From Candidatus Taenariivivens baikalensis (GTDB lineage Bacteria; Omnitrophota; Omnitrophia; Omnitrophales; Aquincolibacteriaceae): 64,000 nucleotides of DNA. Below are positions 2,456-64,000 of this stretch, one piece after another. The stretch is from contig SICL01000002.1 in NCBI GenBank assembly GCA_009691445.1, forward strand, positions 63 to 64,062. The letters run 5' to 3'. Under the pieces are notes generated by a model. That model did no database searches. It saw nothing but the letters and a program-made list of their open reading frames with translations, and was not told where the DNA came from. Each line of letters starts with the position of its first letter. The stretch's first letter is position 1. The translations under genes were made by a program, and so were the position numbers.

Positions 2456-2520
2456 GTCATCGCAAGCTCCACAGGGCGCGACGATCTCGGGGATTGCTTC
2501 CGCGCTTCACTCGCAATGAC
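2456..2520. repeat. Intergenic palindromic repeat element, copy B (GTCATCGCAAG ... GATCTCGGGGATTGCTTCCG ... CTCGCAATGAC)
   Basis: Imperfect inverted repeat sharing core with copy A. It lies in the 149-bp gap between the GT2 and the sugar phosphotransferase. Confidence 0.5.
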
Positions 2521-7480: not shown

Positions 7481-7516
7481 GAATCTTTCTCCCCCTTCGT
7501 TGGAGGAGGTATTCTA

Positions 7517-7675
7517 TCAGAAGAGCGTATAAATGAAAGGCGCGACCGGGGTGCTTTGGGTCAAGACGATCAGGATCCCTAGGAGCAGGAAAACGATTAC
7601 GATCGGGGTGAGCCACCACTTTTTACGGATTTTGAGGAAATCCCAGAATTCTTTCAGGATGGATAGTTTGCCCAT
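7517..7675 (-). CDS. Small single-TM protein, SxtK/DUF5989-like (carbamoyltransferase-associated)
   Basis: The ORF track gives 80 aa. The likely true start is MGKLSILKEFWDFLKIRKKWWLTPIVIVFLLLGILIVL... (about 52 aa). Size, the charged N-terminus followed by one TM helix, and position after an SxtJ-like gene and a carbamoyltransferase fit the sxtI-J-K arrangement. Confidence 0.55.
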   Translation of the reverse strand: MGKLSILKEFWDFLKIRKKWWLTPIVIVFLLLGILIVLTQSTPVAPFIYTLF

Positions 7676-40070: not shown

Positions 40071-40836
40071 TTTCTACCTTGAGCTGGTTAAAGGATTCAA
40101 TGATGTGACAAGGCAGGTCTTTAAAATCCTCTCGGGTTCCGAGTCCGGTCAAGACACCGATATTACAGATGAGCCCCGCGTTTTCCCCCATCAGAATATC
40201 CACCGGATGATCCCCGATGACGGCCGTCTTTTCCCGGCGTGCCTTTGTTTTTACAAGAAGCCTTTCTACGGCTTCAGGTTCGGGTTTTGAATTCTGAATC
40301 TGATCGCCTCCCAGGACAGAGTGAAAATAGGGAGAAAGGCCAAACTGATTCAGAGTTTCCTGGGCGCGATTAGTCCGATCGCTTGTCGCAATGGAAAGCA
40401 GGATTCCGGCATCGTGAGCTTTCCTGACAAAATTTTCCACGCCCGGAAGTAATCGAACGAAATCACGGATGTGAGAAAGCGTTTTCTCATCCACTTCACG
40501 AAAAAGAGTTTCGATCTCCTGGACTGATGCCGCGGCGCCCATCTCCTTGAGTGTCTGAATGACGACTTGAACGATAAAACTCCGCGGTTTAATCCCGACC
40601 GGCCCTTCCCTTTTCATTTTGCCTGTGGATTCATCAATTCCCATGGCTTCAATCAAACGGGTGGAACGTTGTGAATCCGAGGTGTCCTTAAAGTATTTCT
40701 GAACAAGCAACTCGGTTCGCATGCGGATCATCGCGGTCCAGTAAAAATGGACATCAATGAGGGTTCCGTCTTTATCAAAAATAATAAGTTCCGGATCCTC
40801 CAGAAGAGTCTGGCCGGTGTCAAGCTTTAACGCTTT
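40048..40836 (-). CDS. HAD-superfamily hydrolase (phosphatase, HAD-IA-like)
   Basis: The start MKALKLDT... is chosen at 40836 to avoid overlap. Motif I IIFDKDGTLID and a C-terminal GDHPVDI motif. Confidence 0.75.
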   Translation of the reverse strand, partial: KALKLDTGQTLLEDPELIIFDKDGTLIDVHFYWTAMIRMRTELLVQKYFKDTSDSQRSTRLIEAMGIDESTGKMKREGPVGIKPRSFIVQVVIQTLKEMGAAASVQEIETLFREVDEKTLSHIRDFVRLLPGVENFVRKAHDAGILLSIATSDRTNRAQETLNQFGLSPYFHSVLGGDQIQNSKPEPEAVERLLVKTKARREKTAVIGDHPVDILMGENAGLICNIGVLTGLGTREDFKDLPCHIIESFNQLKVENEHALHA

Positions 40837-41833
40837 CATAAAATCCTTCGTGCACCAGTTCTTTTCCGATTTCCACGGCAGAGCGTATATTTTCGGCATT
40901 CGTATCAAAATCCGGTTTAATAAGGAATTCATTCACAATCTTCCGTGCATGAGTTCCTACAGAAATTCCGTTATAACGAACCCCGCACATCCGGGCAAGC
41001 TTAGAGGTTTGATTATTGGTTCCTCCGGAAACGAGGATTTTAAGGCTCTTGAAATTTTTCCGGATAATATCCGTCGTCGCAATGGCCTGAAGCGTGGTAT
41101 TAAAATCGTCTTTTCCCCCGCTCATTGGAACCCCGTCGGCCTGAATAATGGTTCTGTCTTTGGCAATGGATAAGGCTTCCTTGATACGCTGCGTCAGGCT
41201 GTGTGTGGATAAGTAAGCTCGGTCGAGGCACATCGAGATGAAGTTATTCGGTTGAATCTCATTCACCGTTTTCCATTCCTCAATAATTTGGTCATTGGAC
41301 GGGACGGCGGCATGAAGTTCAATATTTTCCGCGCCGGCTTCAAGGCATTCGGGAAGAATTTTTTTGAGCGACTTATCATCATGTTCGTAACGGATGGCAT
41401 CAATTTTTTTCGGACAGGCTTCTTCACAAGCGCCGCATCCGATACAAAGATCCCGGATGATCACCAGATTGAGCGGAATCGCATCCGTCGGGCAAACCGG
41501 AATACATTTATCGCATTTAATGCAGGTATCAATGATGTAAGCTTTGCGGACATGATGATCGCCCGGCATCCCGACGCTGACGGTGATAAAAGGCCGGTTA
41601 GGGATTTCAATATTCAGTTTTTTGGACCATTCGTACGCGGTATTGATTCCCGAAACACAGGATTGAACAATATGCGGCTTGGCAGAAACATCAAAACCGT
41701 TGGCACCGGCAAGCGTATAAACAACCGCAAGCTTGCGGACTTCCTCGGCGTTTTCGTTCCCCGCTCCGCAGACCAGTTTAAAATAACGGTTTTCATCCAA
41801 AAGCTTTCTCATTTCCTCGAAACGCGCATTCAT
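40820..41833 (-). CDS. 4Fe-4S dicluster-domain protein of unknown function
   Basis: 337 aa. Central CIKCDKCIPVCP and CIGCGACEEACP ferredoxin motifs, flanked by an N-domain (KLVCGAGNE) and a C-domain (KILVSGGTNN) that look like split halves of a barrel. Confidence 0.5.
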   Translation of the reverse strand: MNARFEEMRKLLDENRYFKLVCGAGNENAEEVRKLAVVYTLAGANGFDVSAKPHIVQSCVSGINTAYEWSKKLNIEIPNRPFITVSVGMPGDHHVRKAYIIDTCIKCDKCIPVCPTDAIPLNLVIIRDLCIGCGACEEACPKKIDAIRYEHDDKSLKKILPECLEAGAENIELHAAVPSNDQIIEEWKTVNEIQPNNFISMCLDRAYLSTHSLTQRIKEALSIAKDRTIIQADGVPMSGGKDDFNTTLQAIATTDIIRKNFKSLKILVSGGTNNQTSKLARMCGVRYNGISVGTHARKIVNEFLIKPDFDTNAENIRSAVEIGKELVHEGFYESVKA

Positions 41834-44533: not shown

Positions 44534-45352
44534 TTAACTTTTTTGTAGTGTTGACAGATTTTTTGATGGATTCAATTTAAATTTTTCCCATTGAGCCAAG
44601 TCAAATCCTGATTCGATCAAGGATTGGCGGGATTTTTCCAGACCGTCTCCGATAAAGTTAAATAGATGGGCCGTGGCCACGGCATCGACTCGTGGATCTT
44701 TTAACCCCTGGGCAAGGTGATGATAGTTACCGGCACCGCCCGCAAGGATCACCGGAATGGTTAGAGTCTCCGGGATTTGATCCAATAAGCCTAAGTCGTA
44801 ACCCTGTCCTGTTCCATCCCGATGAATCGAATTCAAATAAAGTTCGCCAATAGGATAGTTTGATATTTTTTGGAGCCAGGTACTCAGGGAATCATTGACC
44901 GGCTTACTTCCATTTTCGACCATGATTCGGTATCCGGACTCATGGAGGGAAGCATCAACGGAGGCAATAATGCATTGCTGTCCAAATTCTACAGCCAGTT
45001 GGTTGAGAAGGATGGGGTTTTCAAAGATCGGAGTGTTGATAACGATCTTATCTGCGCCAGACCGGAGAAGTTGTTTAGCTTGCTCAACGGAGCGGATTCC
45101 TCCCCCTGCGGCTATCGGCATAAAGCAACCCTCCGTGAGCGACTTGAGATGTTCACAAAAAAGATCAAATTGGCGAGCGTCTCGTGAAACATCAAGGACG
45201 ATCAATTCATCGATCGAAAATGCCACTCGATAAAAGTTATAATTCTTTTGCAGCCACCGTAGATCACCCACGCGCTGCAGACGAAAATTACGGCTTAACA
45301 TGAATGAGCCGTGATCAAATAAGAGTGTAAAAATAACACGTTTTTTAAGCAT
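44534..45352 (-). CDS. HisF-like cyclase subunit of a glycan-modifying imidazole-glycerol-phosphate-synthase-like complex (WbuY/PseudoHisF type)
   Basis: The start MLKKRVIFTLLFDHG is chosen at 45352. IAAGGGIRSVEQAKQLLRSGADKIVINT is a HisF-type (beta/alpha)8 phosphate-binding motif. It sits next to a HisH-like gene and a WbpG-like amidotransferase. Confidence 0.8.
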   Translation of the reverse strand: MLKKRVIFTLLFDHGSFMLSRNFRLQRVGDLRWLQKNYNFYRVAFSIDELIVLDVSRDARQFDLFCEHLKSLTEGCFMPIAAGGGIRSVEQAKQLLRSGADKIVINTPIFENPILLNQLAVEFGQQCIIASVDASLHESGYRIMVENGSKPVNDSLSTWLQKISNYPIGELYLNSIHRDGTGQGYDLGLLDQIPETLTIPVILAGGAGNYHHLAQGLKDPRVDAVATAHLFNFIGDGLEKSRQSLIESGFDLAQWEKFKLNPSKNLSTLQKS

Positions 45353-45354
45353 GG

Positions 45355-45981
45355 TTAAATCTCTAGAAAATTTCCTAATAAAATCAAACCGTTCGTTTGG
45401 CTTTTTTCCGGATGAAATTGAGTGCCGCATATATTGTTCACCTCAAATGCAGCGAGGAACTCAGTGCCATAGTTGCAAGTCCCCCAATTCCCTTTCAGTT
45501 CTGCGCCAAGCATGCGATAGGAGTGAACAAAGTAAAAATCAGCGGCAGGAGGCAATGAGCGAAATAATCCTGAGCATTTGGCAAAATGAACCGTATTGAA
45601 TCCCACATGAGGGATTTTATTTCGGTTGAGTTCTTGCGGTGAAAATTTATCAACGGCATTCGAAATCAATCCAAGGCCTTTCGTCTTACCATCTTCTGAA
45701 CCGGAAGCACCCAAAAGCTGCATGCCTAGACAGATTCCTAATATTTTTGCACCGCGAACTTTAACAGCCTCTAAAATCGCCTGTTCAAGACGCGTGCGTC
45801 TCAAGGTTTCCATTGCTTTTCTAAAGGAGCCTACGCCCGGTAAAATTAAGAAATTCGCCTCGCGAACTTGATCAGGATCGCTGCTTAAGAGGGATTGTCT
45901 TCCCAAGTAGCGGACCGCACTCTGAACTGACCAAAGATTGCCCATTCCATAATCGATCGTAACAATCTTTTTTTGTGACAT
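45355..45981 (-). CDS. HisH-like class I glutamine amidotransferase subunit
   Basis: 208 aa. IVTIDYGMGNLWSVQSA...ILPGVGSF plus the catalytic Cys region GICLGMQLL. Confidence 0.85.
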   Translation of the reverse strand: MSQKKIVTIDYGMGNLWSVQSAVRYLGRQSLLSSDPDQVREANFLILPGVGSFRKAMETLRRTRLEQAILEAVKVRGAKILGICLGMQLLGASGSEDGKTKGLGLISNAVDKFSPQELNRNKIPHVGFNTVHFAKCSGLFRSLPPAADFYFVHSYRMLGAELKGNWGTCNYGTEFLAAFEVNNICGTQFHPEKSQTNGLILLGNFLEI

Positions 45982-50663: not shown

Positions 50664-51292
50664 TAAGCAGTCCTCTTCATTAAATTTTGTGATGCTGATG
50701 AAGCAATGTTGCGAAGGATCGTTGAACCTGCTTTGATAAGGGTGTTGGGGCCGATGTGCCTTTCCTGAATGATCACAGAACCGCTTCCGATGAGCGAGTT
50801 TTCCCCAACAATGACTCCACCGCATAAAGTAACCCCAGGTGCAATATGAACATGAGGCCCAATCTTGCAATCATGATCGATCGAGGATCGGGTATTAATA
50901 ATGGAATTTTCCCGAATAATGGTTCCAGGCTGAACAACGGTTCCGGCCATGATCTGTACCCCCTCACCTATTTGGACATCCGAAGCAATCACGGAAGAAG
51001 GATGGACAACGGAAGCAAAGTTATAACCCAAGGATTTAAAATAAGTAAAAATTCTTTTGCGATGGTCGCTGACCCTAATGGTGCCAAGCCCATTGACTAA
51101 ACGAATTTTTGAATTTGTAAATTCAAGAACGGCGTTATCATCACCCAGGACACTTAATCCTGAAATTTTTTCACCGGCTTTATGTGAAGGGTCAGTGATC
51201 CCAATTATTCTTTCTTTGCGTAGTTTTAACGTCTCAATCAAGACCCTCGCATGCCCCCCACCCCCAAGAATGATAATCGGTGGTTGTTTCAT
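50663..51292 (-). CDS. PglD/NeuD-family hexapeptide-repeat sugar N-acetyltransferase (LegH-like)
   Basis: The start MKQPPIIILGGGGHARVLIE is chosen at 51292. It has an N-terminal Rossmann-like segment plus a left-handed beta-helix (IGEGVQIMAGTVV...GENSLIGSGSVI). Confidence 0.8.
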   Translation of the reverse strand: MKQPPIIILGGGGHARVLIETLKLRKERIIGITDPSHKAGEKISGLSVLGDDNAVLEFTNSKIRLVNGLGTIRVSDHRKRIFTYFKSLGYNFASVVHPSSVIASDVQIGEGVQIMAGTVVQPGTIIRENSIINTRSSIDHDCKIGPHVHIAPGVTLCGGVIVGENSLIGSGSVIIQERHIGPNTLIKAGSTILRNIASSASQNLMKRTA

Positions 51293-52362
51293 AAAGTCAC
51301 CAAGTCGTCTTTGCAAAAGTTTTTGAGAGAAGGACGTCCCAGGAGTTCCCAATATTTATAGGGACTGAGACCCAAGCCGGGTCTTTTGATCGCAAGATTA
51401 GATGATGAAAACAAATCCCCTTTTTTAATCGAGGAGGATGCCACAATGCTTTTTCGGATGGCCGATATGTTTTTAGTTTCACACAAAGAGGGTTTTTTTT
51501 GACCGTCGCCTAGGGCGTATTCAACAGCGCGTATTCCATCGATCATTTGTTTGAGTTCATTAGGTTCAAGAGAAGCAAAGTGATCCGGTCCGGAAAGTCT
51601 TCGATCCAGTGTAAAGTGTTTCTCAATAATGGTTGTTCCCAGAGCGGCTGCGGCGATGGGCACTGCACCTCCCAAGGAATGATCGGACAGTCCGGTGGAA
51701 AGGCTAAAGATTTTTTGCAAAGTCATCATGGCACGTAAATTAATGGCGTGATAAGGAGCTGGATACTCCGTGGTGCATTGAAGCAAAGTCACTTTTTCTT
51801 TCAGAAGCCCCTTTCCTTCCCGAGAATCGTAATAAGATTTAAACTTTCGTTCTGATGGGTCTTCCTTGGCTGAAGAAAGAAATCCAAAGGCTAGCACCGA
51901 GAGTGCTTTTTTAATTTCCTGAAGGGTTGACATTCCCGTTGATAAAATAATAGGCAACTTTTTTCGGGCGACGTGAAGTAAGAACGGAGCGTTTGTAATT
52001 TCTCCTGATGAGATTTTAAAACGCTTAACCCCAAGTTCATATAAAAAGTCTGCACTGGCCTCATCAAAAGGCGTTGAGAGAAATTCGATTTTTTGCTTTG
52101 TGCATTCCCGGAATAAAGCTTGATGACTTCGATCCGTTAACTCCAGGCGCTTAATCATATTCCATTGCGATGAACCCCTAGTCTGTTTCATTTGGTACGA
52201 TGCTTTGGGGGTTGTTTTGGTCAGAAGCGTCTCAGCTCGGAAAGTTTGAAACTTGACCGCGTCTGCGCCCGATGATTTTGCGCAACGCACCATTTCAAGG
52301 GCTCTTTCCACATTCCCATTATGATTGACGCCGGCCTCGGCAATAACATATACGTGTTTCAT
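51289..52362 (-). CDS. Nonulosonic acid synthase (NeuB/LegI/PseI family) with C-terminal SAF domain
   Basis: 357 aa. Starts MKHVYVIAEAGVNHNGNVERALEMV, has the SGADAVKFQTF motif, and ends in an antifreeze-like domain. Confidence 0.9.
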   Translation of the reverse strand: MKHVYVIAEAGVNHNGNVERALEMVRCAKSSGADAVKFQTFRAETLLTKTTPKASYQMKQTRGSSQWNMIKRLELTDRSHQALFRECTKQKIEFLSTPFDEASADFLYELGVKRFKISSGEITNAPFLLHVARKKLPIILSTGMSTLQEIKKALSVLAFGFLSSAKEDPSERKFKSYYDSREGKGLLKEKVTLLQCTTEYPAPYHAINLRAMMTLQKIFSLSTGLSDHSLGGAVPIAAAALGTTIIEKHFTLDRRLSGPDHFASLEPNELKQMIDGIRAVEYALGDGQKKPSLCETKNISAIRKSIVASSSIKKGDLFSSSNLAIKRPGLGLSPYKYWELLGRPSLKNFCKDDLVTL

Positions 52363-53027
52363 CGGGTCTCACGAAGAATCATAAACGCTTCAGCTGCTTT
52401 AACACCGCATTCGGATCCTCGAAGCAGCGCGAGCGCTTTCATTGTATCGGCAGAACGAGGAAACGGATGTTTTCCCCATTCACTTTGATACGTTTTCATG
52501 GCGTTTATTTTTTTTTGCAGGAACGAGGTGATATTGATATATAAATTAGGAACAAATGATTTTTGAGTCGGATCAAGCTTGAAACCTGTTTCAGAAAGGG
52601 TTTCATAGGTATAGATGTTTTTAACCGAAGGAGCACGAAACCATTTTGCTGCAGTCAGCACCGCGTCAAATGCAGCCCGGTGATCACTATGAGCGTCTCC
52701 CGGGAAAGGAACAAATAAGGTATCCGGTTTGATTTCATTGATAACTTTTTTGATTTTAAAGATCAAATCTGATTTTGGAATCTGATCGAGGGAACAAGGA
52801 GAGAATCCGAGATCCCAGGATGAATTAAATCGATAGAATTTTTCGATGGCTTTAATTTCTTTCTCCCGTCGTGAGATTGAAGAAACGGAATAGCCTGAAC
52901 GCGGACTCATTTGTGTAACGCGAATCCAATGGATTCTTTTTCCTTCTGCCCGAAGCCGAAAAAGAGTTCCTCCGCAGCCAAGAGTTTCATCATCGGGATG
53001 AGGAGCGATAACTACAATATTTTTCAT
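52359..53027 (-). CDS. PIG-L/LmbE-family N-deacetylase
   Basis: The start MKNIVVIAPHPDDETLGCGGT is chosen at 53027. AHPDDE is the family zinc-binding signature. Confidence 0.8.
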   Translation of the reverse strand: MKNIVVIAPHPDDETLGCGGTLFRLRAEGKRIHWIRVTQMSPRSGYSVSSISRREKEIKAIEKFYRFNSSWDLGFSPCSLDQIPKSDLIFKIKKVINEIKPDTLFVPFPGDAHSDHRAAFDAVLTAAKWFRAPSVKNIYTYETLSETGFKLDPTQKSFVPNLYINITSFLQKKINAMKTYQSEWGKHPFPRSADTMKALALLRGSECGVKAAEAFMILRETR

Positions 53028-53923
53028 AGATACTCTCCCGCTTTCGGGCATTGAGGAATGTCGTGGCTGAGGATTTGCAGAGCGGATGCGCCGCCGCATT
53101 TTATGGTGAAATGCTTTTTGGAAGCATTAAGAATTTTACCGGGCTCGCAATTATCCTTTAAATTTGTAACTACTTGAGATCTCCAGACAGCAAATTTCTT
53201 TCCGTTGTATCGGCACACAGCTCCAGGATAAGGTTTGGCCAGTGCTCGGATGAGATTGTAAATCGTTTCGGCGGACATTCTCCAATCAATTGCACCGTCC
53301 CCTTCCGATCGTTTTCTCCAAGTATTTCCGTGATCAGCAGGTTGTTTCCCACGTTTAAATTCCCCAGAAGCGAGTGCTAAGCTAAAAGTGGGTATTTGCT
53401 GTTTTGCAATTTTAAGGAGACGCTGATAGAGATCATGCGCATAATCGGTCTTTGAGATTTTTACATTTTTTTGGTCAAGAATATCCCCTGTGTCCGCTTT
53501 CTCATCCATGAAAAAGAAAGTCGATGCGGTTTGTTTTAAGCCGAGGGCTAAAGCCCAGATAATCGGATGCCGTCCTCGATTATAGGGTAGTTTGGCAGGA
53601 TGGTATCCAATGACCCCCAGGCGCGGAATTTCCAAAATTGTTTTTTGCAGCAACCACGACCATCCGAAACAATAAATCACATCAGGGCATATTTCATGAA
53701 GCCATTTCACAAGATTTTCTTCGTTGTGCTGGTCTGCAAGGAAATAAGGGATTTTATGGCGGGCTGCAACGGGCTGAAGTGAAGTGAAATCGCTGTTAAA
53801 ACTGGATGCTTTACGTGTGACAACTCCGGCCACATGATAATGCTTATTTTTTTGCTTCAGAAGATCTCGGAGGCATGACTCGCTGAATTGGACACAACCC
53901 ATAAAAACTATCTTCATCGGCAA
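53024..53923 (-). CDS. Formyltransferase (Fmt/ArnA-N-like, N10-formyl-THF-dependent sugar N-formyltransferase candidate)
   Basis: 299 aa. The formyl_trans_N fold with GVIGYHPAKLPYNRGRHP (HxSLLPxxRG-like catalytic region). Confidence 0.75.
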   Translation of the reverse strand: MPMKIVFMGCVQFSESCLRDLLKQKNKHYHVAGVVTRKASSFNSDFTSLQPVAARHKIPYFLADQHNEENLVKWLHEICPDVIYCFGWSWLLQKTILEIPRLGVIGYHPAKLPYNRGRHPIIWALALGLKQTASTFFFMDEKADTGDILDQKNVKISKTDYAHDLYQRLLKIAKQQIPTFSLALASGEFKRGKQPADHGNTWRKRSEGDGAIDWRMSAETIYNLIRALAKPYPGAVCRYNGKKFAVWRSQVVTNLKDNCEPGKILNASKKHFTIKCGGASALQILSHDIPQCPKAGEYL

Positions 53924-55077
53924 CCTGCCGGAACGTAAAATTTTTTCTTGAGCAAATCCGCACCAAGAGGAAAATATTTTATTTCCTTTTTAATCATCAT
54001 GGATGCCCGGCCCTTGCCGTAAAGGAAATCGGGTTTTACTTTTTTTGATCGTATTAAACCCGATTGAATCGATTGTTTAATTTTTCCTGAATTTTCAGGG
54101 CAATCGATGACCGTTTTAGCGCGCAATCTTCCTTTTTGCCGGTCACCGATATTGATAGAGATTTTCCCCATAAAAGGCGCTTCAATAATTCCGCTGGATG
54201 AATTTCCAACCAGAAGAGTGGCGTGGTGCATCAGGCTTAAGTAGATTTCTTGACCAAGCGACGTGAAAGCAAAAGTACGAGATTTTTTTTCCACATACTC
54301 ATCTATCAATTGATTAATCGAAAGGCCCAGGGGGTCTGTATTGCTTTTAGTAATAATAATGGTCCCTCGCCGAAAATGATTTAGGGCTTTAAAGAGTTCC
54401 TGGGCGGAACGTAACGACTTCTTCCCTTCCAAAGTGACGGGATGATAAGTGACGAGAAAAAGAGGGCTGTGGATTTTTATTTTCAGACAACTTTCAAGTT
54501 CCTGGAGAGTAAGCGCTTTCGTCTTCTTGATGTGGTCAAGTCCCGGAGCCCCATAATTAAATACCCGGTTGGGTTCCTCACCCATTTGGATGATGTGTTT
54601 TCGATAAGTTTCCGAGGCGGCAAAATGAAGATGAGCCATTTTTGTGATCGAATGGCGAATGGCTTCATCGATAAGCCCCTCGGTGGATTCTCCCCCGTGA
54701 ATATGGGCGATGGGGATACGGGCAATCATTGCCGCTTGAGCCGCTGCAAATATTTCATAGCGGTCCCCTAAAATAACGAGCAGATCCGGATTTAATTTTT
54801 TGAGTCCTTTCGCGAAGGAATCCACTCCAATGCCCAGGGATTTACTGACAGCTTCAGGGGAATCGGTTGCTAAGGGCATCCTGGCCTTGTAGGCGATTGA
54901 AAAGCCATCTTTTTCAATCTTTTCAACCGTGCGACCAAATTGTTTTAAGAGATGCGCGGCACCCGCGATCACCTGGAGTTTCAAAGAAGAGTCATTCTGG
55001 ATTTCTTTCATAATCCAATAGAGATGTCCATAATCAGCGCGTGATCCCGTGACGACGCAAATCTTTCTCTTTTTCAT
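53914..55077 (-). CDS. UDP/GDP-N-acetylglucosamine 2-epimerase, hydrolysing (NeuC/LegG family)
   Basis: 387 aa. Starts ICVVTGSRADYGHL, has HIHGGE, and matches NeuC throughout. Confidence 0.85.
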   Translation of the reverse strand: MKKRKICVVTGSRADYGHLYWIMKEIQNDSSLKLQVIAGAAHLLKQFGRTVEKIEKDGFSIAYKARMPLATDSPEAVSKSLGIGVDSFAKGLKKLNPDLLVILGDRYEIFAAAQAAMIARIPIAHIHGGESTEGLIDEAIRHSITKMAHLHFAASETYRKHIIQMGEEPNRVFNYGAPGLDHIKKTKALTLQELESCLKIKIHSPLFLVTYHPVTLEGKKSLRSAQELFKALNHFRRGTIIITKSNTDPLGLSINQLIDEYVEKKSRTFAFTSLGQEIYLSLMHHATLLVGNSSSGIIEAPFMGKISINIGDRQKGRLRAKTVIDCPENSGKIKQSIQSGLIRSKKVKPDFLYGKGRASMMIKKEIKYFPLGADLLKKKFYVPAGCR

Positions 55078-56249
55078 AGAAGAACACCGCTTGGGATATT
55101 AATAAGACGTGTTTCAATATCTTCGGCTGTCGATAAATCCATTCTCGGACATTCCGAGTACATGGGAAGGCGGTGCATGAGTGTCCAGCACGGACGTGTA
55201 CTCATTCCATTTTGATTTGTGATTTCAAGCAGCGGATTGCGCATTGACGCTTGATCGGCATCAAGAAGAAGTGCATTGAGCCAGTAATTGCTTTGAGATT
55301 CCTTAGGTTCGGTAAAAAAATGGATTCCGGATAAGCCTTCAAAAGCTTTTTGATAGCGTCCTGCAAGCTCTCGTTTATTTTTTAGAAAAAGAGGTATTTG
55401 TTCGAGCTGGGCACAACCAAGGGCTGCATTGATATTAGGAAGGCGGTAATTAAAACCTATTTCATCATGGGCGAAAAAATAGCCGTGAGGAATCCGAGCC
55501 GTTGTGGTGATATGTTTCAATTTTTGTGCGAGTTTTTCATTGTTTGTCAGAATGGCCCCGCCGCCTCCGGTGGTGATGATTTTGTTTCCATTAAAACTTA
55601 AAATCGTCAGATCGCCCCAGCTTCCGGTGTGCTTTCCCTGGTAATAAGAGCCAAGGGATTCTGCGGCATCTTCGATAAAAATAAGATTGTATTTTTTACA
55701 GAGCGTCTGAATGAGATCCGCCCGAAAGGGATGACCGAAGATATGAACACCGATTAAAGCTTTGATCGGATTTCCAGTCTTACGATTAACAAGCTGGCCA
55801 TTCTTAATCTGAGCAATAGTTTCAAGATACTGATCGAGTTTTTCCGGATCAACACCCAGGGTTTTTTGTTCCGAGTCAATCAAATGAGGAATGGCTCCCA
55901 AATAGCTTACCGCATTCGCTGTGGCGACAAAGGTGAGGGTGGGAATCAAGACTTCGTCGTTTGGAGCAATTCCCGAAATTTTGAGTGCCGCATGGAGTGC
56001 CGCCGTTCCATTAACAACTGCCACGGCCTTTTTTATTCCCGTAAATTGGACAAGATCATTTTCAAACCGATCTACATAAGTTCCAACCGATGAAACCCAC
56101 CCCGTGTCCAAACATTCTTTTACGTAATCCCACTCCTTGCCCGCAAAATGGGGTGCGTGAAGAGGGACGGGTAAAGATGATTCAGGAATACAACTTTTGA
56201 TTTTACGAAAAACCATTTCAAGATCTAATTCGATTTTAAGTTTTGTCAT
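55074..56249 (-). CDS. DegT-family aminotransferase (LegC/PglE-like, NDP-4-keto-6-deoxy-sugar 4-aminotransferase)
   Basis: 391 aa. AVAVVNGTAALHAAL, FNGNKIITTGGGG and DegT fold. Confidence 0.85.
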   Translation of the reverse strand: MTKLKIELDLEMVFRKIKSCIPESSLPVPLHAPHFAGKEWDYVKECLDTGWVSSVGTYVDRFENDLVQFTGIKKAVAVVNGTAALHAALKISGIAPNDEVLIPTLTFVATANAVSYLGAIPHLIDSEQKTLGVDPEKLDQYLETIAQIKNGQLVNRKTGNPIKALIGVHIFGHPFRADLIQTLCKKYNLIFIEDAAESLGSYYQGKHTGSWGDLTILSFNGNKIITTGGGGAILTNNEKLAQKLKHITTTARIPHGYFFAHDEIGFNYRLPNINAALGCAQLEQIPLFLKNKRELAGRYQKAFEGLSGIHFFTEPKESQSNYWLNALLLDADQASMRNPLLEITNQNGMSTRPCWTLMHRLPMYSECPRMDLSTAEDIETRLINIPSGVLL

Positions 56250-56252
56250 GAG

Positions 56253-57263
56253 TTAAAGATTGTAAAGATACGATTTGTATTGAGCTAAATTATTCCGATC
56301 AGAAAACCAATGAATGGTTTCCTGAAGCCCTTGAATTAAACCTTCTTTGCCTTCCGATTGCGGTTTCCACCCGGTCAAACGCTGTACCTTCGTCGCGTCT
56401 GCACAAAGACGTTTCACCTCACTTTTTAAGGGGCGCAAACGTTCGGCATCATTTTCCAGTTCAAGGGGCGTATGCATAAGTTCTGAAATAAGTTGCGCAA
56501 GATCCCCGATAGAAATTTCAAAGCCGGTCCCCAGATTCAAAATTTCACCGGTTGTGGCAGGCGATTCTGCGGCTGCTATAAACCCACGAACGGTATCCAA
56601 GACGAAATTAAAATCACGCGTAGGATGAAGGGCCCCGAGTTTGATTTTCTGTTTCCCATTTGCAAGCTGGGTAATGATCGTGGGGATTACTGCCCTCGCA
56701 GATTGCCGGGGGCCATAGGTATTGAAGGGTCTTACGATGGTGACAGGTAGATCAAAGGATTCATGAAATGACATGGCAATCTGATCTGCGCCTATTTTTG
56801 TGGCGGCATACGGTGATTGTCCATGCAAAGGATGTTTTTCCGTGATGGGAACCGTTTGCGCGCTTCCGTAAACCTCGCTTGTTGAGGTGTGGATGAATTT
56901 TTTAATACCCATGTCTCGCGCAGCCTGCAGTAAGTTGAGTGTTCCCTTGATGTTGGTGTCCACATAGGCATCGGGAGAATGATAGGAAAATGGAATTCCG
57001 ATAAGGGCGGCTAAATGGAAGATATAGTCACAGCCGTGAAGCGCTGTCCTTACTCCGTGAGGATCTCGAATGTCCCCCATAAAGATTTCGATTTTGTCTT
57101 GAATTTCCGGCTCTAAATGGTCTAACCAGCCCCAACTATTGAACGAGTTATAAAAAACGAAGGCACGGATATCACATCCGGAACGGACTAATGCTTCTGT
57201 TAAATGGGACCCGATAAAGCCGTCCGCACCGGTCACCAGTATTTTTGAATTTTTGAGATTCAA
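56253..57263 (-). CDS. NAD-dependent NDP-sugar 4,6-dehydratase/epimerase (LegB-like extended SDR)
   Basis: 336 aa. VTGADGFIGSHL, YAATK, and dTDP-glucose-4,6-dehydratase-like layout. It is the first biosynthetic step gene, adjacent to the aminotransferase. Confidence 0.75.
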   Translation of the reverse strand: MNLKNSKILVTGADGFIGSHLTEALVRSGCDIRAFVFYNSFNSWGWLDHLEPEIQDKIEIFMGDIRDPHGVRTALHGCDYIFHLAALIGIPFSYHSPDAYVDTNIKGTLNLLQAARDMGIKKFIHTSTSEVYGSAQTVPITEKHPLHGQSPYAATKIGADQIAMSFHESFDLPVTIVRPFNTYGPRQSARAVIPTIITQLANGKQKIKLGALHPTRDFNFVLDTVRGFIAAAESPATTGEILNLGTGFEISIGDLAQLISELMHTPLELENDAERLRPLKSEVKRLCADATKVQRLTGWKPQSEGKEGLIQGLQETIHWFSDRNNLAQYKSYLYNL

Positions 57264-57617: not shown

Positions 57618-59756
57618 TTAATTCGAAAGGGTGTAGCGGACAAAGTCGTCGTGGGAGGCGTCTTTGGAGTCGGTGAAGTTGGACTCAGTGGAAATGATCT
57701 TCCGGAACAGGCTTTCAACATTGCTCACTCGAGTCACAATCTTACTCAATGCATTGGCATGAATTCCGTAGCGCAAGAATTGATCGCGGCGAACCGCTAG
57801 TTGGTCCTCCGTAAAAAGAAAGTCATAGCGGATCGTATGATCGCGCATAAACCGCGAAAGCGGGGTTCCCTCCGGGCTTTTCATCCAGCCCACGATATCT
57901 ACATTGCATTCAAGGCTTTTCGGCGTCAAATCCCCTTCATGATTAAGAACGCCTTTTAGTTTCATTTTGACAAACTGATTGAGAAGGTTGATCTCTTCTT
58001 CCGTTTCCTTCCATTTTTCCCGGGAAAGTTTTTCATGTGCGATCTGAATACAGATTTGCATGAGGTAATCCGCCCAGGCGTCGGCAGCAAAAGCAAGACT
58101 CATGGCCTTGTATTTATAAATAACATTGCCGCCAATTTCCCCATGATACAGCGCTTTGTAGTTAGCATCCTTTTCGTAGAAATGCAGCATTTCCTCGGCG
58201 GAGTTCCAAAGCTCTCCTTTGGTCTCAGTAATAAAACCTTCAAAAATTTTCTTTACGTCTCCTGGAGCTGAGTCCATCGCGCCGTAAACACGTAGGATAA
58301 AATCAAAAAGTTTGATATCAAACGACGCCGCATAACGAAAAAATTCATTAAAAGGACGGCTATTGTGCAGCACTTCCACCATCATGGCGAGCCCTCGGAT
58401 CCAGAGGTAGTCCTCAAAGGACATGTCTTTATTGGCGATTCCCACTTCTTCATAATCAAAAATTCTTTTGCCACCATACTCGCCAAAGTTGAGGGGAACA
58501 ATGCGGTACTTGCCCTTGATTTGAAATTCATTTCTGTACTCAGGCTCCTGAAAAGGGGTTCCGTGCAGAAGCATTAAGGAGTATGTACAGACCATGCTGA
58601 CTCCCGCTTCAAGGATATTTTGAACACCGCGTGTAAAAGTCTCCTTCGTTTCTCCCGGCAATCCCACGATTAGTTCGCCCTTGGTTGATCGCCCGCGTTC
58701 CGTCAGGGTTTTATTCACCGCCACATAGTGATCGAGTTTGATATTGGCACGCTTGATATTTTCAAGAACTTGCGGATCCATAGACTGGACCGACATGTTG
58801 ACGGAGAAAGTATTTCCCAGCATTTGAGTGATTTCAATGACATGCTCTTTTTTATTCTTTCCTGTGGTTGCCATGATTTGAAGAGGCCATCCATACTGAG
58901 TCTGAGCGGTTAAAAGTTCCTGGCAAATTTCTTTATCGCGGACATACATGCCAAAATTCGTATCGGCGATGTGGAGGTTTTTAATGCCGTGCTTTTTCAT
59001 GTAAGGCCCGACATAACGGATTTCATCGCGGATTCTTTCAAACGAAAACATGTTGATATGATTGAAGTATTGATTCCCGGTATGGCAGAACGTGCAGGCA
59101 AAAGGACATCCGCGATTGGTTTCCAAAAACGGTGTCAGCCTTCCGTCAAAAAAATGATCCAAAAGCCCAGAAAGGTACGGTGACGGTATATCGTCCAGTG
59201 ACTTCAATCGTTCGGGAGGCATTCCTTTAAGGAGCAGGGGCTCGGAACTGTTACGACTTTCAGGGACAATAAAGACGCAGCCATCGACGGGTTTTTCAAA
59301 TACCTTTTTCCGGTTCCCGCGGCTTTCAAGGATCCTTCCGACTAGGTTAGAAAAAGCAATCTCCCCTTCAAGTTCTACAAAAACATCGGTATTGGGATAC
59401 TGAAGCATGAATCCAAGTTGTAATTCGCTCCGGTGCGGGAAATTAGTCCCTCCCATGGAGGTAATGACATCGGGGTTTGCTTGCTTGGCAATGCCGGCGA
59501 CATGCTCAGAAAGGCGGCTGTTCCAGGAGTAATTACTTAAGGCGATAACATCCGGCGGATTATTTTGAATGGCTTCAATGACTGATGCAGGGTATTTGAA
59601 TAGCGAGACTTCAATATCTTCTCCGTAGATTTTCTTTGCATAAGCCGCAATAAATCCAATATTAATGGGAATGGTATCAGAAACTAAAACAAGCGTGTCG
59701 TGCGTCAGATCACACAGATAGATTTTTAATTTATCCTTTAAAGCCTTTTGTATCAT
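57618..59756 (-). CDS. B12-binding radical SAM enzyme (class B radical SAM, methyltransferase-like) with an ~260-aa C-terminal extension
   Basis: 712 aa. N-terminal cobalamin-binding Rossmann-like domain (DVIALSNYSWNS...). CPFACTFC radical SAM cysteine triad at roughly residues 217-224. Confidence 0.8.
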   Translation of the reverse strand: MIQKALKDKLKIYLCDLTHDTLVLVSDTIPINIGFIAAYAKKIYGEDIEVSLFKYPASVIEAIQNNPPDVIALSNYSWNSRLSEHVAGIAKQANPDVITSMGGTNFPHRSELQLGFMLQYPNTDVFVELEGEIAFSNLVGRILESRGNRKKVFEKPVDGCVFIVPESRNSSEPLLLKGMPPERLKSLDDIPSPYLSGLLDHFFDGRLTPFLETNRGCPFACTFCHTGNQYFNHINMFSFERIRDEIRYVGPYMKKHGIKNLHIADTNFGMYVRDKEICQELLTAQTQYGWPLQIMATTGKNKKEHVIEITQMLGNTFSVNMSVQSMDPQVLENIKRANIKLDHYVAVNKTLTERGRSTKGELIVGLPGETKETFTRGVQNILEAGVSMVCTYSLMLLHGTPFQEPEYRNEFQIKGKYRIVPLNFGEYGGKRIFDYEEVGIANKDMSFEDYLWIRGLAMMVEVLHNSRPFNEFFRYAASFDIKLFDFILRVYGAMDSAPGDVKKIFEGFITETKGELWNSAEEMLHFYEKDANYKALYHGEIGGNVIYKYKAMSLAFAADAWADYLMQICIQIAHEKLSREKWKETEEEINLLNQFVKMKLKGVLNHEGDLTPKSLECNVDIVGWMKSPEGTPLSRFMRDHTIRYDFLFTEDQLAVRRDQFLRYGIHANALSKIVTRVSNVESLFRKIISTESNFTDSKDASHDDFVRYTLSN

Positions 59757-59877: not shown

Positions 59878-60822
59878 TCATGATTGAGTTTTGAGATACC
59901 AATCAATGGTATTCTTAAGGCCATCCGCGAGTGCTGTTTTTGCTTTGAAGCCAAAAAAATGTTCTGCGCGTGAAATATCAACACATCTCCGCGGCTGCCC
60001 ATTAGGCTTGGAATCGTCCCATTCGATATCGCCTTGAAATCCTGTCATTTTAACAATCATTTCTGTGACTTGACGGATTGAAATTTCCTGGCCGGTTCCC
60101 AGGTTTACGGGTTCTTTTCCGTTATAGTGAAGCAAGCCAAGGACAATTCCTTCAGCCGCATCCTCAGCATAAAAAAATTCACGTGTGGGTGAACCATCGC
60201 CCCAGCAGATAATTTTGTTATCTCCTTGTTTTTTAGCCTGGATGCATTTTCGAATAATTGCAGGAATGACATGCGAAGTATGAGGATCAAAATTATCCCT
60301 AGGTCCATACATATTCACCGGCATCAAATAAATACTGTTCAGACCGTATTGTTCCCGGTAAGTTTGAGCTTGAACGAGTAAAAGTTTTTTGGCAATCCCG
60401 TAGGGGGCATTTGTTTCTTCTGGATAGCCATTCCAGAGATCTTCTTCCTTGAAAGGAACCGGGCAGAATTTCGGATAGGAGCATATGGTTCCAAGGATCA
60501 AGAGTTTTTCTACCGGCACATGGCGGCAGGATTCGATCAGTTGAGATCCCATCATCAGATTTTCATAAAGAAATTTTCCGGGATTGACCTGATTGGCTCC
60601 GATACCTCCGACACTCCCTGCGGCATGAATGATATAGTCAGGACGCTGATCTTTAAGGAGGCGAACAACCGCTTCTTTTTCGATTAGATTGTAGTCTTTG
60701 CTGCGGGGTACAAAGATTTTTTTCGCGCCTTTTTCTCGAAGCTTTTCCACAATAAAGCTTCCCAAAAAACCAGCCCCACCCGTCACTACAATCACTTTAT
60801 CTTTTAAATCTGGGGCACTCAT
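59878..60822 (-). CDS. fcl: GDP-L-fucose synthase-like NDP-4-keto-6-deoxyhexose 3,5-epimerase/4-reductase (Fcl/WcaG family)
   Basis: The start [25 protein letters not shown] is chosen at 60822. It has Fcl-type motifs ([27 protein letters not shown]). Confidence 0.8.
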
Positions 60823-60832
60823 CGGGACATCC

Positions 60833-61792
60833 TTAGCGTGAGCGAAGTTTTTTGACCTGCTCTTCAATCCAGGGATAGGTGATCGCAATGCCGTTCTTAA
60901 GCTTAAATTGCGCCTGCCATCCGGTTCGATAAATTTTTTCATTACTAAAATTGCGGGAAAGAACACCCACGGGACCGTCGACAAATTTTTTCTTTATTTT
61001 TTTCTTGGCTATTTCAGCAACGATGTCGACCAAGTCGCTCACCGTCAGATATTCAGGATTTCCAATATTAGCGGGCCCTTCCACCTGGGATTGCATTAAG
61101 CGATAGATTCCGTCCACCATGTCATCGACGTAGGTGTAGGATCGAACCGCCGTGCCGTCACCCCAAATTTCAATGGCTCCCCCGTTTTCCGCTTCAGCAA
61201 CTTTCCGGCAGATAGCGGCCGGGGCTTTCTCGCGTCCTCCGTGCCAGGTCCCTTCGGGGCCATAACAATTCTGAAAGCGAGCAATCCGGATCACCATACC
61301 GTGCTTCCGTCCAAAAGCCAAAGCCATTCGTTCCGCATAAAGTTTTTCCCAACCGTACTCATTATCTGGAAGTGCGGGATAAGCATCCTCTTCCTTAAGC
61401 TCGGGAGCACCCGGTTTCATGTCGCGGTAGACGCAGGCCGAAGAAGAAAAAAAATAACGTTTAATTTTTTTTTCCGCAGCGCCAGCTGTCATATTGCTAT
61501 TGATCAAAGCATTATGACGCATGATATCGCATTCCGCCGAATGAATGAAACCCATCCCGCCCATATCGGCTGCTAAATTAAAAACTTCGTCAAATCCTTG
61601 AGGATCAGATAAAGCTTTCCGACACTGTTCCATGTCCCGCAAATCAAAGATCTGGAAATCATCGGCTTGGGTGGGAGAATATTCTGGACTTTTGATATCG
61701 ACTCCGCGAACCCAATAGCCTTCACGCTTCAGACGTTTGACCAAGTGATGGGCGATGAATCCCCCGGCACCGGTTACAAGCGCGCGTCTCAT
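60833..61792 (-). CDS. GDP-mannose 3,5-epimerase-like (GME family) extended SDR
   Basis: 319 aa. [19 protein letters not shown] and [28 protein letters not shown] correspond to my recollection of plant GME blocks ([46 protein letters not shown]). It is not Gmd-like. Confidence 0.7.
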
Positions 61793-61891
61793 GTTTCTTT
61801 AGCCTTTTTGATCTTGGTTATCCAAAAAAAAATGCTGAGCACAACATGACTTATCATCGGTCTCTTGGCTGAATTCTAAAGGGAATCCCAT

Positions 61892-62629
61892 TCAAGACAA
61901 AGGGGCGGCTAATTCAGCCTGAGAAGAGGCAAGTTGATGCGGATAGAAATTAGCAAAGCGGACATAATCATTTTTAAGGAAGTTCTTTACATACGAAAAA
62001 TTCAAATCGCGGATATCGGTCCATCGTTCTTTGCGGAACATAGCCGGACTTTTATTCAGGATTTCACAATTTTCTCCAAAATGTTTCACATAGTCGTCTT
62101 TATGCAAAAGAAACTGAGATTTTTTCAGGTAGACGGCATTATGAAACCGGCCGAAGAGCTTTGCGCGTCGATCCACCAGGGCCACATCTTCAAGATCTTT
62201 GAGAATCTTTATTCTACGGAAAACCCCTTCAATGATTTTGCGGAAAGGATAAAGCCAAAAGGGTATGTCTAGTTGAACCGACAGCTCGCTCAGTGTCGTT
62301 TTAGAGTCCGGATTTTCATAATATCGGAGCATTGTTTTTGTTTTAATGACATGGTGAATGCTGGGAAGCCATTCGGGGTGAGGTCTCAAATGGTGGTTAA
62401 TGAATGTCGCCGGGGCGCGGTATTCGCAGATGTAGGTTTGTCCAAATGTAATCCCGAAAACATTCCAGGTTTGATGGCATTTGTAATAACGGAGGCCCTT
62501 TTTAAGGACCTCAATCGATGCGGTCAGAGATTTATGGAGAAAAATATAGTGCTCGGCATCAAGGTAGACTGCTACCGCAATTGCAAGCGGCATGTCCATT
62601 TCATAACAAATCTTAAAATGGTATTTCAT
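61892..62629 (-). CDS. Rieske-oxygenase catalytic (mononuclear non-heme Fe) domain protein, encoded separately from its Rieske domain
   Basis: 245 aa. N-terminal YLDAEHYIFLH matches the DxxHxxxxH 2-His iron motif of Rieske oxygenase alpha-subunit catalytic domains. The start overlaps the Rieske ORF stop by ATGA. Confidence 0.5.
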   Translation of the reverse strand: MKYHFKICYEMDMPLAIAVAVYLDAEHYIFLHKSLTASIEVLKKGLRYYKCHQTWNVFGITFGQTYICEYRAPATFINHHLRPHPEWLPSIHHVIKTKTMLRYYENPDSKTTLSELSVQLDIPFWLYPFRKIIEGVFRRIKILKDLEDVALVDRRAKLFGRFHNAVYLKKSQFLLHKDDYVKHFGENCEILNKSPAMFRKERWTDIRDLNFSYVKNFLKNDYVRFANFYPHQLASSQAELAAPLS

Positions 62630-63069
62630 AGAAACTTAGGCACATCAATGACAAGCTCATTTTGTATAATCTCGCAGGGAAATTCCCGGAATTTATAGTG
62701 GGGAGTTTTGTACTGATCCATTTTTCCTGCGGCGAGAGGCTGTATCCAGATTTTTTCATTGGGGTTTTCAAGAAGTGACAAACTGGTTTTGGAGTATCGA
62801 TAACCATGCCAGGGGCAAACAAGAGCATTCGTTTTTGAACAAAGCCAGCCTTGAGACAAAGGGCCGCCCATATGGGGGCAGACATCATGAAATGCCCGCC
62901 ACGTCTTTCCGTCATGAAGGATAACAACTGTAAGATCAAGGCTAATTTTCTTTGAGTTGACCTGATCTTCCTTGAGTGCACTTAGAGGTACAGCGATACA
63001 ACATTTTTTTTCTTCGGCGAGCTGTTGATACATGGATTTATTGTATCGCAGGCGCCCACGCAGGGTCAA
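62626..63069 (-). CDS. Rieske [2Fe-2S] domain protein
   Basis: CPHMGGPLSQG ... CPWHGYRY (CxH-x16-CxxH). The start may be the internal Met (MYQQLAEEKK) at 63033. Confidence 0.8.
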   Translation of the reverse strand: MTLRGRLRYNKSMYQQLAEEKKCCIAVPLSALKEDQVNSKKISLDLTVVILHDGKTWRAFHDVCPHMGGPLSQGWLCSKTNALVCPWHGYRYSKTSLSLLENPNEKIWIQPLAAGKMDQYKTPHYKFREFPCEIIQNELVIDVPKFL

Positions 63070-63099
63070 TCAGGATGATGGTGTCGGGTGCCTACTCGG

Positions 63100-63220
63100 A
63101 CCACTCGGTACAGTCATTGCGAGTCCCGCGCCTTGGCGGAGACGCGGCAATCCCTGGGCACAACCCGATATTGCTCTCGCTGCGGCTCGCACCAACGGTT
63201 GAGAGTTTTCTCGCAATACC
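63100..63220. repeat. Intergenic palindromic repeat element, copy E (GTCATTGCGAG ... GCGGCAATCCC ... TCTCGCAATACC)
   Basis: Same core motif as copies A-D. It lies in the 197-bp gap between the Rieske gene and the terminal membrane-protein gene. Confidence 0.5.
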
Positions 63221-63266
63221 AAGCGTATGAAGTTTTGGTAGGACCAATGATGTCGGGATGTTGGAG

Positions 63267-64000
63267 TTACTTCAGGCGGTAGACTGTATAAACATATTGA
63301 GATTCCCGGATATTTTGGGAGCGGATCTCGGTTAAGAATTCCGTTTTGGCGCTATTTTTCAACAGGTTGTCAAGAAACGGGTATAAATTGGATCCTCCTT
63401 TGGATGATGCAGGGATGATTTCATTTCGTAAAATATGAGTCACACCCTGTTGCTTGAGCAAAGTAATCAGCGTTGCTTCATTCCAGTCGGGACGATTCCG
63501 GTAGATGCGGTAAAACATCCAGGCATCGATTAAGCGGGGCTTGAAATAGAGATGATGAACTTCATTGGCATTAAAGATGACAGCATGAGCAGGAAGATGC
63601 TGATTGATCCATTCAGCAGCTGGATAGGCTCGGTCATAATGCCGCAAGAACACCTCTCGACTTTCATGCTTGATTAAATAAATGAGTTGGGCTCGGTAGT
63701 GTCGAATACCCAAGGCCAAATAGCCGAAAAGAGCGAGCAGACATACCACGCTGATTGGGTGCAAAATTTTAGAATTAAACCTTTCTCTTAGATCATTGAA
63801 TCCATACACGCAGCTTAAAAGCATTAGGGGGAAAATGGACAAAAGAAACCGAATGTCCTGGGCGGATAAAAACCACAGTGCCGTTACAACGAAGCTGATA
63901 AAAAAATAGGGACGTGCTTTTGGATTTTTGAATGCCCCCCAGGCGGCACAAGGAACAAGTAAGGTATAGAGGGGTCCAATCCAATGGTATTGATTGAATG
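63267..64000 (-). CDS. Polytopic membrane protein with C-terminal soluble domain (GT-C-like candidate), N-terminus beyond window end
   Basis: The ORF-track entry starts at a TTG. Manual translation shows the frame stays open through position 64000 (...FISFVVTALWFLSAQDIRFLLSIFPLMLLSCVYG...), so the gene begins outside the window. It has hydrophobic helices followed by a soluble tail. Confidence 0.5.
   Translation of the reverse strand, partial: FNQYHWIGPLYTLLVPCAAWGAFKNPKARPYFFISFVVTALWFLSAQDIRFLLSIFPLMLLSCVYGFNDLRERFNSKILHPISVVCLLALFGYLALGIRHYRAQLIYLIKHESREVFLRHYDRAYPAAEWINQHLPAHAVIFNANEVHHLYFKPRLIDAWMFYRIYRNRPDWNEATLITLLKQQGVTHILRNEIIPASSKGGSNLYPFLDNLLKNSAKTEFLTEIRSQNIRESQYVYTVYRLK

Follow-up and report, generated by a model that had tools for sequence, protein, structure and literature searches.

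Two overlapping open reading frames (ORFs) on the minus strand, at the high-coordinate side of a 64,000-nucleotide (nt) stretch of contig SICL01000002.1 (hereafter the window), raise the question of whether the two domains of a Rieske non-heme iron oxygenase are made here as separate polypeptides by nature or have been parted by an accident of mutation or sequencing. ORF1 (62626..63033, minus strand) encodes a Rieske [2Fe-2S] protein of 135 amino acids (aa) when read from the ATG at 63033, and ORF2 (61892..62629, minus strand) encodes a protein of 245 aa. The stop codon of the first and the start codon of the second share the tetranucleotide ATGA at 62626..62629 (...TTT CTA TGA / ATG AAA TAC, minus strand), which places ORF2 in the -1 frame relative to ORF1. 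This overlap, already recorded in a preliminary description of the window, is present and is of the kind predicted to couple translation of the two genes. I consider it probable that one Rieske non-heme iron oxygenase is encoded here in two halves, produced as separate, translationally coupled polypeptides, as that description had proposed. The observations behind this reading are the identities of the two domains, the fold of the second protein, the conservation of the cluster and iron ligands, the obligate pairing of the two genes and their co-divergence.

The identity of the first half is given by its sequence. ORF1 matches the Pfam Rieske family PF00355 (E = 3e-13, 49.9 bits for a cutoff of 20.3) and contains the Rieske site of oxygenase alpha subunits, CxH-x15-18-CxxH, as CPHMGGPLSQGWLCSKTNALVCPWH at 62806..62880 (minus strand), that is, CPH-x18-CPWH. 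The motif had been correctly recognized in the preliminary description but its spacer, given there as 16 residues, is of 18, and the relatives of ORF1 have spacers of 17 or 18. The four cluster ligands C, H, C and H are invariant across 14 paired sequences, the pattern C.H...C.WH was found upstream of ORF2 in 29/29 loci scanned, and the Rieske subunit carries a family-specific ENPNE motif. Comparison with solved structures gives as its best relatives the Rieske domains of alpha3-type oxygenases, SxtT first (1.6e-7), then GxtA, CARDO, OMO, NdmA, KshA, CntA and DdmC, with mouse RFESD and Rieske ferredoxins interleaved among them.

The start of ORF1 deserves a comment. The longest frame in the ORF list (62626..63069, minus strand) begins with a TTG at 63069 and would give 147 aa, but the National Center for Biotechnology Information (NCBI) annotation of the same metagenome-assembled genome (MAG; Candidatus Omnitrophica bacterium) starts the gene at ATG 63033, which is the more probable start. 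A consensus scan picked out a promoter-like sequence, TTGACC-18 nt-TACAAT, at 63040..63069 (minus strand; 10/12 matches), which ends 6 nt before this ATG with no Shine-Dalgarno sequence in between; because of this spacing, the mRNA of the Rieske gene may be leaderless or nearly so. The evidence is weak, as the region holds three such sites where shuffled sequences hold 3.2, and thus no excess. The TTG at 63069 falls within the -35 element of this site.

If the split were an accident, a normal single-chain Rieske oxygenase gene would have suffered a recent frameshift, decayed into a pseudogene or been misassembled, and the preliminary description had left a very recent frameshift open beside a natural domain split. 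A 4-nt overlap between different frames could indeed arise from a 1-nt insertion or deletion. To decide the matter, 30 loci were compared: the window, seven metagenome loci and 22 genome loci. These 22 genomes, all of them MAGs, come from at least nine phyla and include Rokubacteria/Methylomirabilota, Cyanobacteria, Polyangiaceae and other Myxococcota, Acidimicrobiia, Bacteriovoracaceae, Elusimicrobia/Endomicrobium, Rhodospirillaceae and Acidobacteria, among others. In 30/30 loci the ORF2 homologue is immediately preceded, on the same strand, by a Rieske gene, and in 30/30 the two domains are encoded by separate ORFs rather than on one polypeptide. The junctions between them differ: the 4-nt overlap, ATGA or GTGA, occurs in 5/7 metagenome loci and 18/22 genome loci, and the remaining junctions are spacers of 0 (TAA-ATG), 3, 6, 19 or 84 nt and one 11-nt overlap. 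Shine-Dalgarno-like sequences, GGAG or GAGG, precede the ORF2 start, within the Rieske gene, in 14/22 genome loci, as counted from the junction sequences. Programmed -1 frameshifting towards a fused protein was considered as well and rejected: the sequence TTTCTATGA holds no slippery heptamer, and in-frame stops and spacers occur at other loci.

The homologues tell the same story by their size. A collection of 5.8 billion proteins yielded 39 homologues of ORF2 (146-278 aa), the full-length ones all starting at the same MKxxF, and 21 homologues of ORF1, all of 117-157 aa and stand-alone. A profile search run exhaustively over 1.84 billion representatives returned only 75 relatives, with all family members at most 246 aa long; one 6328-aa protein among the profile matches shares short repeats only. 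Among the 75 representatives a single one, a 183-aa metagenomic fragment (P0083), has the Rieske C-terminus in frame with an ORF2-like N-terminus through a linker of about 11 residues (...LELCKSMPIHSF...). This fragment is what a proponent of the frameshift would point to; a rare natural re-fusion is conceivable, and so is an artefact of sequencing or gene calling. Set against two ORFs with varied junctions at every locus in at least nine phyla, stand-alone lengths throughout, a common ORF2 start and ribosome-binding-like sequences in front of it, the accidental origin of the split becomes extremely improbable, and a very recent frameshift is excluded by the two ORFs kept at all 30 loci and by the stand-alone size of all the homologues. 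Moreover, over 29 loci the pairwise identities of one protein are correlated with those of the other (r = 0.82, a value reached by 0/2000 Mantel permutations), which, together with the adjacency of the genes in 30/30 loci, indicates that both have been inherited and have diverged as a unit. The split is therefore natural and marks a real enzyme family rather than a sequencing error.

The second half called for a different approach, since recognition of ORF2 depends on fold and conservation. The AlphaFold (AF2) model of ORF2 has a mean predicted local distance difference test (pLDDT) score of 90.9 and consists of a strand, two short helices, a six-stranded antiparallel sheet, a long helix (residues 127-159) and a helical extension. 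The minimal domain occupies about residues 1-190, and the C-terminal extension that follows is common to the longer homologues only. Foldseek matched the model to Bet v 1/PR-10 proteins, START-like proteins, thebaine synthase and aromatase/cyclases, which identifies it as a helix-grip fold of the SRPBCC superfamily. Rieske oxygenases have a catalytic domain of this superfamily, and it was on such a fold that the preliminary description had made its reading of the 245-aa protein depend.

Conservation was then assessed on an alignment of 86 full-length family members, the most distant included. The sole invariant positions are D24, H27 and H32 (100%, 86/86), P73, and D148 (85 D, 1 E), so that the motifs are no chance matches. 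The first three belong to the motif DAEHYIFLH (DxxHxxxxH; residues 24-32, encoded at 62534..62560, minus strand), which had been placed at the very beginning of the protein but is in fact preceded by a beta-strand and a helix. D148, in the sequence KDLED (62186..62188, minus strand), supplies the conserved C-terminal carboxylate that the earlier reading had called for. In the model, the second short helix bears H27 and H32, and the long C-terminal helix bears D148; Rieske oxygenases place their iron ligands at these same positions of the fold. Because the invariant set matches the D/E-x2-H-x4-H ... D arrangement of Rieske oxygenases, D24 is here assigned as the putative bridging carboxylate, and H27, H32 and D148 as a putative 2-His-1-carboxylate triad.

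This assignment was compared with an enzyme of the family. Aligned by hhalign with the catalytic part of Escherichia coli YeaW, a CntA orthologue, the ORF2 family profile gave one colinear alignment of 151 columns, in which YLDAEHYIFLH falls on YLECYHCGPAH, KDLED148 falls on FRPED325, and D24 falls on E208 of YeaW, by homology E205 of CntA. The score was 27.7 (P = 0.0016), as compared with a mean of 13.0, a standard deviation of 2.2 and a maximum of 18.4 for 100 shuffles (z ~6.8). In CntA the iron ligands are H208, H213 and D323, and E205 is the bridging residue (PMC7948474). The two halves were also modelled together, as a concatenated ORF1+ORF2 single chain (pLDDT 82.5). All of the top 50 PDB matches found for this model by Foldseek (50/50) are Rieske oxygenase alpha subunits, GxtA and SxtT leading at 1e-12, followed by KshA, CARDO, NdmA/B, CntA and phthalate dioxygenase, and no Rieske ferredoxin appears among these 50. 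Since the alignments span 276-434 columns, both domains align in the same order as in the alpha subunits, and the comparison of the joined protein with alpha subunits that had been suggested at the outset thus came out in favour of the oxygenase.

Several results weigh against this reading; those that concern the identity of ORF2 are given here, and those that bear on its chemistry further below. Neither as a single sequence nor as a profile did ORF2 give a significant match in Pfam, NCBIfam or the PDB sequences. No Rieske-oxygenase catalytic model (Pfam Ring_hydroxyl_A and related models, NCBIfam) matched ORF2 or any of 37 members, even with the E-value limit relaxed to 10, and the family profile found no Rieske oxygenase in the PDB. 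The hhalign probability of the YeaW alignment is only 16%, and the score obtained with E. coli HcaE, of the alpha3beta3 type, was not significant, although the DxxHxxxxH motif was still aligned. The link of ORF2 to the catalytic domain thus consists of its fold, the register of its motifs and one modest profile-to-sequence alignment. Finally, the concatenated model superposes poorly on alpha subunits (template modelling score 0.21-0.32, root-mean-square deviation 16-25 Å). This is expected, because the orientation of the domains is uninformed and part of the input alignment is wrong: the last ~40 Rieske residues are misaligned, so that the model says nothing on the interface and was used for fold and colinearity only.

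These same results leave a place for another idea, that ORF1 is a Rieske-type ferredoxin and ORF2 a non-iron SRPBCC protein, either a ligand-binding or carrier protein or a cyclase/dehydratase-like enzyme with an acid-base His/Asp, the two being linked only by their pathway. The model of ORF2 alone has small Bet v 1-like proteins as its best Foldseek matches. Weak matches to the SRPBCC-clan family Polyketide_cyc2 (PF10604) were obtained for 5/37 members (best E = 5.7e-4), the gathering threshold being reached by none of the 37 and the window protein having no match at all, and there are ferredoxins among the matches of the Rieske half. What this idea does not account for is the exact make-up of the invariant set, D-x2-H-x4-H and a carboxylate on a helix, which falls in register with the ligands of YeaW and CntA and is not known from any SRPBCC cyclase or binding protein. 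The strict adjacency, the coupling and the co-divergence with a redox protein would also be hard to explain, and the two-domain model matches only oxygenase alpha subunits, across both domains. I regard this idea as improbable.

If the two proteins are taken as halves of one oxygenase, their assembly, the source of their electrons, the reaction and its substrate may be inferred as follows. The 135-aa protein would carry the Rieske [2Fe-2S] cluster at C64, H66, C85 and H88 (147-aa numbering), and the 245-aa protein would be a minimal helix-grip catalytic subunit that binds a mononuclear Fe(II) through H27, H32 and D148, with D24 as the carboxylate bridging to a His ligand of the Rieske cluster. 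The two would assemble into a hetero-oligomer, most likely a head-to-tail ring of the kind formed by CntA, SxtT and KshA as alpha3 trimers. Within one chain of CntA, 44 Å separate the two centres, and electron transfer occurs across the subunit interface over 12.2 Å (PMC7948474). Because electron transfer in alpha3 enzymes already runs between different chains, the covalent link between the domains would be dispensable and the split mechanistically harmless; split Rieske oxygenases are indeed functional in the chlorophyllide a oxygenase of Micromonas and in NdmCDE. The Rieske cluster would be reduced by a non-dedicated cellular reductase or ferredoxin, and electrons would pass via D24 to the iron, where O2 would be activated for the oxidation of a C-H bond, most likely by monooxygenation. 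The probable target is a sugar, nucleotide-activated or bound to a polymer, or else an N-acyl or methyl group that it bears; here, the products of the adjacent Fcl-like reductases, B12 radical-SAM methyltransferase and legionaminic-acid genes would be the candidates. From gene context one may guess, and no more, at the hydroxylation of a sugar, of an N-acyl group or of a methyl group added shortly before.

The points that count against this chemistry come from the surroundings of the genes and from their hosts. No reductase or ferredoxin gene lies within ~8 kb of the pair in the eight annotated loci, and in the annotated glycan region of the window the only ferredoxin-like gene, encoding a 337-aa protein with 4Fe-4S ferredoxin (Fer4) and LdpA_C domains (40820-41833, minus strand), is 20 kb away. 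Some biosynthetic Rieske oxygenases have no dedicated reductase. Several of the hosts (Omnitrophica, Elusimicrobia/Endomicrobium and Methylomirabilota) are mostly anaerobic or microaerophilic, and the O2-sensitive B12 radical-SAM genes found among the neighbours fit uneasily with an O2-dependent enzyme. The neighbouring genes also vary greatly, so that the context does not define a substrate.

In a variant of the explanation, the pair is a genuine two-metal-centre redox enzyme of Rieske-oxygenase ancestry but not an O2-dependent hydroxylase, catalysing instead an O- or N-demethylation, a desaturation, or an O2-free reaction in anaerobes. Many of the alpha3-type relatives are demethylases (NdmA/B, DdmC and the Stc2-like 3vca), SAM methyltransferases and B12 radical-SAM methyltransferases are the commonest neighbours of the pair, and several hosts are anaerobes. 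Yet demethylation and desaturation by Rieske enzymes are still O2-dependent monooxygenase chemistry, which makes this variant a refinement more than a competitor. For its O2-free form, I know of no O2-independent reaction of a Rieske oxygenase scaffold, and the pair is also carried by aerobic hosts (Pseudanabaena, Polyangiaceae and Acidimicrobiia). I consider this variant quite improbable.

The genes around the pair were the reason for looking to glycans for its substrate. The preliminary description had put it at the end of a glycan operon, which is true only in plus-strand coordinates: on the coding strand the pair is on the 5' (upstream) side of the epimerase, radical-SAM and legionaminic-acid genes. 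Downstream of it on the same strand come two Fcl-like epimerase/reductases of the short-chain dehydrogenase/reductase (SDR) type identified by Pfam (59878-60984 and 60833-61792, minus strand), then a 712-aa B12-binding radical-SAM protein (57618-59756, minus strand) whose closest family is KedN5 (212 bits, below the cutoff of 700), a family of cobalamin-dependent C-methyltransferases. For the 368-aa Fcl-like ORF, the list gives a TTG start that makes it overlap the preceding epimerase gene by ~150 nt, and its Pfam match begins only at residue 65; because of this overlap and this late match, translation probably begins at an internal Met around MSAPDL.... Next is the legionaminic-acid core (51289-57263, minus strand), with LegB (514 bits, cutoff 475), LegC (535 bits, cutoff 420), a NeuC-type hydrolysing 2-epimerase (447 bits) and a NeuB-type synthase (454 bits), all four above their NCBIfam cutoffs. 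The presence of a formyltransferase and a PIG-L-type deacetylase interposed in this core suggests that the nonulosonate is N-formylated or otherwise re-acylated. The glycan run also holds a PglD-like acetyltransferase, nucleotidyl- and cytidylyltransferases, glycosyltransferases, a flippase, an MBOAT protein and others. A glutamine amidotransferase (GATase) gene stands beside a His_biosynth (HisF-like) gene (44534-45981, minus strand), a pairing used elsewhere for acetamidino groups on amino sugars.

On the other side of the pair, 197 nt upstream, is a frame without a Pfam match that runs off the end of the window (63267-64000, minus strand; at least 243 aa) and resembles the C-terminal part of a large membrane protein. 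A homologue of it is directly upstream of the pair in one other locus (L005) too, and in other loci unrelated polytopic proteins of 520-716 aa, without a Pfam family, adjoin the pair. The intergenic segment (63070-63266, 197 nt) is GC-rich, at 0.53-0.57 as compared with ~0.43 nearby, and contains a hairpin-like motif, ATTGCGAG...GCAATC, at 63116-63152 (plus strand), of which a second copy, also intergenic, is found at 2492-2517 (minus strand); these are two matches where 0.04 are expected by chance. An Rfam scan of 61700-63400, the hairpin-like motif included, found no family.

Beyond the window, glycan genes are near the pair in 7/8 Pfam-annotated loci. Neighbour families were counted over the 30 loci by a seed-based tblastn, which detects only the families seeded and replaced an earlier clustering of flanking ORFs that had been misled by spurious ORFs in GC-rich loci. 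A fusion of a methyltransferase and a family 2 glycosyltransferase (MT-GT2) is present in 11/30 loci, B12 radical-SAM genes in six or seven (six by tblastn, one, L023, added by the ORF clustering), with about six loci each for Fcl-like SDRs and for DegT aminotransferases; an O-antigen ABC transporter with a Wzt_C domain and large unannotated polytopic membrane proteins are found among the neighbours elsewhere. A role of the Rieske protein as the reductant of the neighbouring B12 radical-SAM enzyme was considered and dismissed, as the latter is present in only 6-7/30 loci and ORF2 in all. The pair itself is the only constant element across the 30 loci, and looks like a portable glycan tailoring cassette. 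In one locus only (L002), a gene for a Lactamase_B_2 protein, of the metallo-beta-lactamase fold, lies directly upstream of the Rieske gene (6719-7594), an arrangement that recalls the Rieske plus metallo-beta-lactamase architecture of CMAH and NamH.

Rieske oxygenases have been studied as single-chain alpha subunits, and the natural splits found in the literature are those of the algal chlorophyllide a oxygenase (CAO) and of the caffeine-degrading NdmCDE. Split Rieske oxygenases are thus already known, and the pair is a further form, as yet uncharacterized: a rare, unannotated and phylogenetically scattered bacterial family, split at every locus examined in very different bacteria, with a free Rieske subunit of ~130 aa and a very small catalytic core of ~190 aa, smaller than the matched alpha-subunit chains of 311-409 residues in the PDB. 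A literature search, of limited reach, found no description of this split family. Current annotation misses ORF2, which appears as a "hypothetical protein" with no Pfam family, and an ORF2 profile would let annotators recognize these cassettes. The pair could serve as a simple system for studying docking and the passage of electrons between Rieske and iron centres, and it points to an unrecognized oxidative tailoring step in bacterial surface-glycan biosynthesis. A bolder version of the proposal, which I think unlikely to hold in full, is that this is an obligately two-subunit, minimal Rieske oxygenase family, a mobile two-gene cassette for glycan tailoring that performs an oxidation new to bacterial glycan chemistry (for example, N-acyl or C-methyl hydroxylation on a legionaminic-acid-type or 6-deoxy sugar), and whose architecture could be the ancestral state before fusion rather than the product of a later fission.

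How the pair stands with respect to known systems can now be stated. The alpha3-type oxygenases (CntA/YeaW, SxtT/GxtA, KshA, NdmA/NdmB, DdmC and CarAa) resemble it most closely, in the CxH...CxxH site, the helix-grip domain, the D/E-x2-H-x4-H motif with a helix carboxylate, and the order of the domains. They are single polypeptides, whereas the pair is two; its ~190-aa core is covered by no Pfam or NCBIfam catalytic model, unlike theirs, and it differs further by its Rieske spacer of 17-18 residues, its ENPNE motif and the absence of an adjacent reductase gene in the eight annotated loci. Its setting is glycan biosynthesis and theirs is catabolism or alkaloid or steroid metabolism. The Rieske ferredoxins (BphF, CarAc, HcaC and T4moC) are, like ORF1, small, soluble and stand-alone, and are among its weaker matches, those to NCBIfam included. 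They serve oxygenases that have a Rieske domain of their own, whereas ORF2, the partner of ORF1, has none; the CPHxG...CPWHGY motifs of ORF1 resemble those of alpha-subunit Rieske domains and, unlike ferredoxin genes, its gene always adjoins the catalytic gene.

The precedent for a Rieske-dependent oxidation in glycan pathways is provided by CMAH and mycobacterial NamH, Rieske hydroxylases that convert the N-acetyl group of nucleotide sugars to N-glycolyl. Both are single polypeptides with a catalytic domain of the metallo-beta-lactamase/UlaG type, whereas ORF2 is an SRPBCC protein; the pair is therefore not of this type, and the preliminary description was right to set CMP-Neu5Ac hydroxylase apart by its catalytic fold. 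In the N7-demethylase NdmCDE of Pseudomonas putida CBB5, as in the pair, a catalytic non-heme iron subunit is given its Rieske cluster by another polypeptide: NdmC has no cluster of its own and is supplied by the reductase NdmD, the glutathione S-transferase (GST)-like NdmE being also required. There, the Rieske domain is fused to the reductase, whereas the Rieske protein of the pair is free (117-157 aa), and no GST-like gene stands beside the pair in the eight annotated loci, so the pair is not of the NdmCDE type. The other split system is the chlorophyllide a oxygenase of Micromonas pusilla, a natural two-gene Rieske oxygenase whose Rieske and mononuclear-iron parts are carried by two genes, MpCAO1 and MpCAO2, both required for activity. 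The algal enzyme is eukaryotic, acts on a tetrapyrrole on the way to chlorophyll b and, unlike the bacterial pair, is not encoded by overlapping genes, but it divides between two polypeptides what the ORFs of the window probably divide between theirs.

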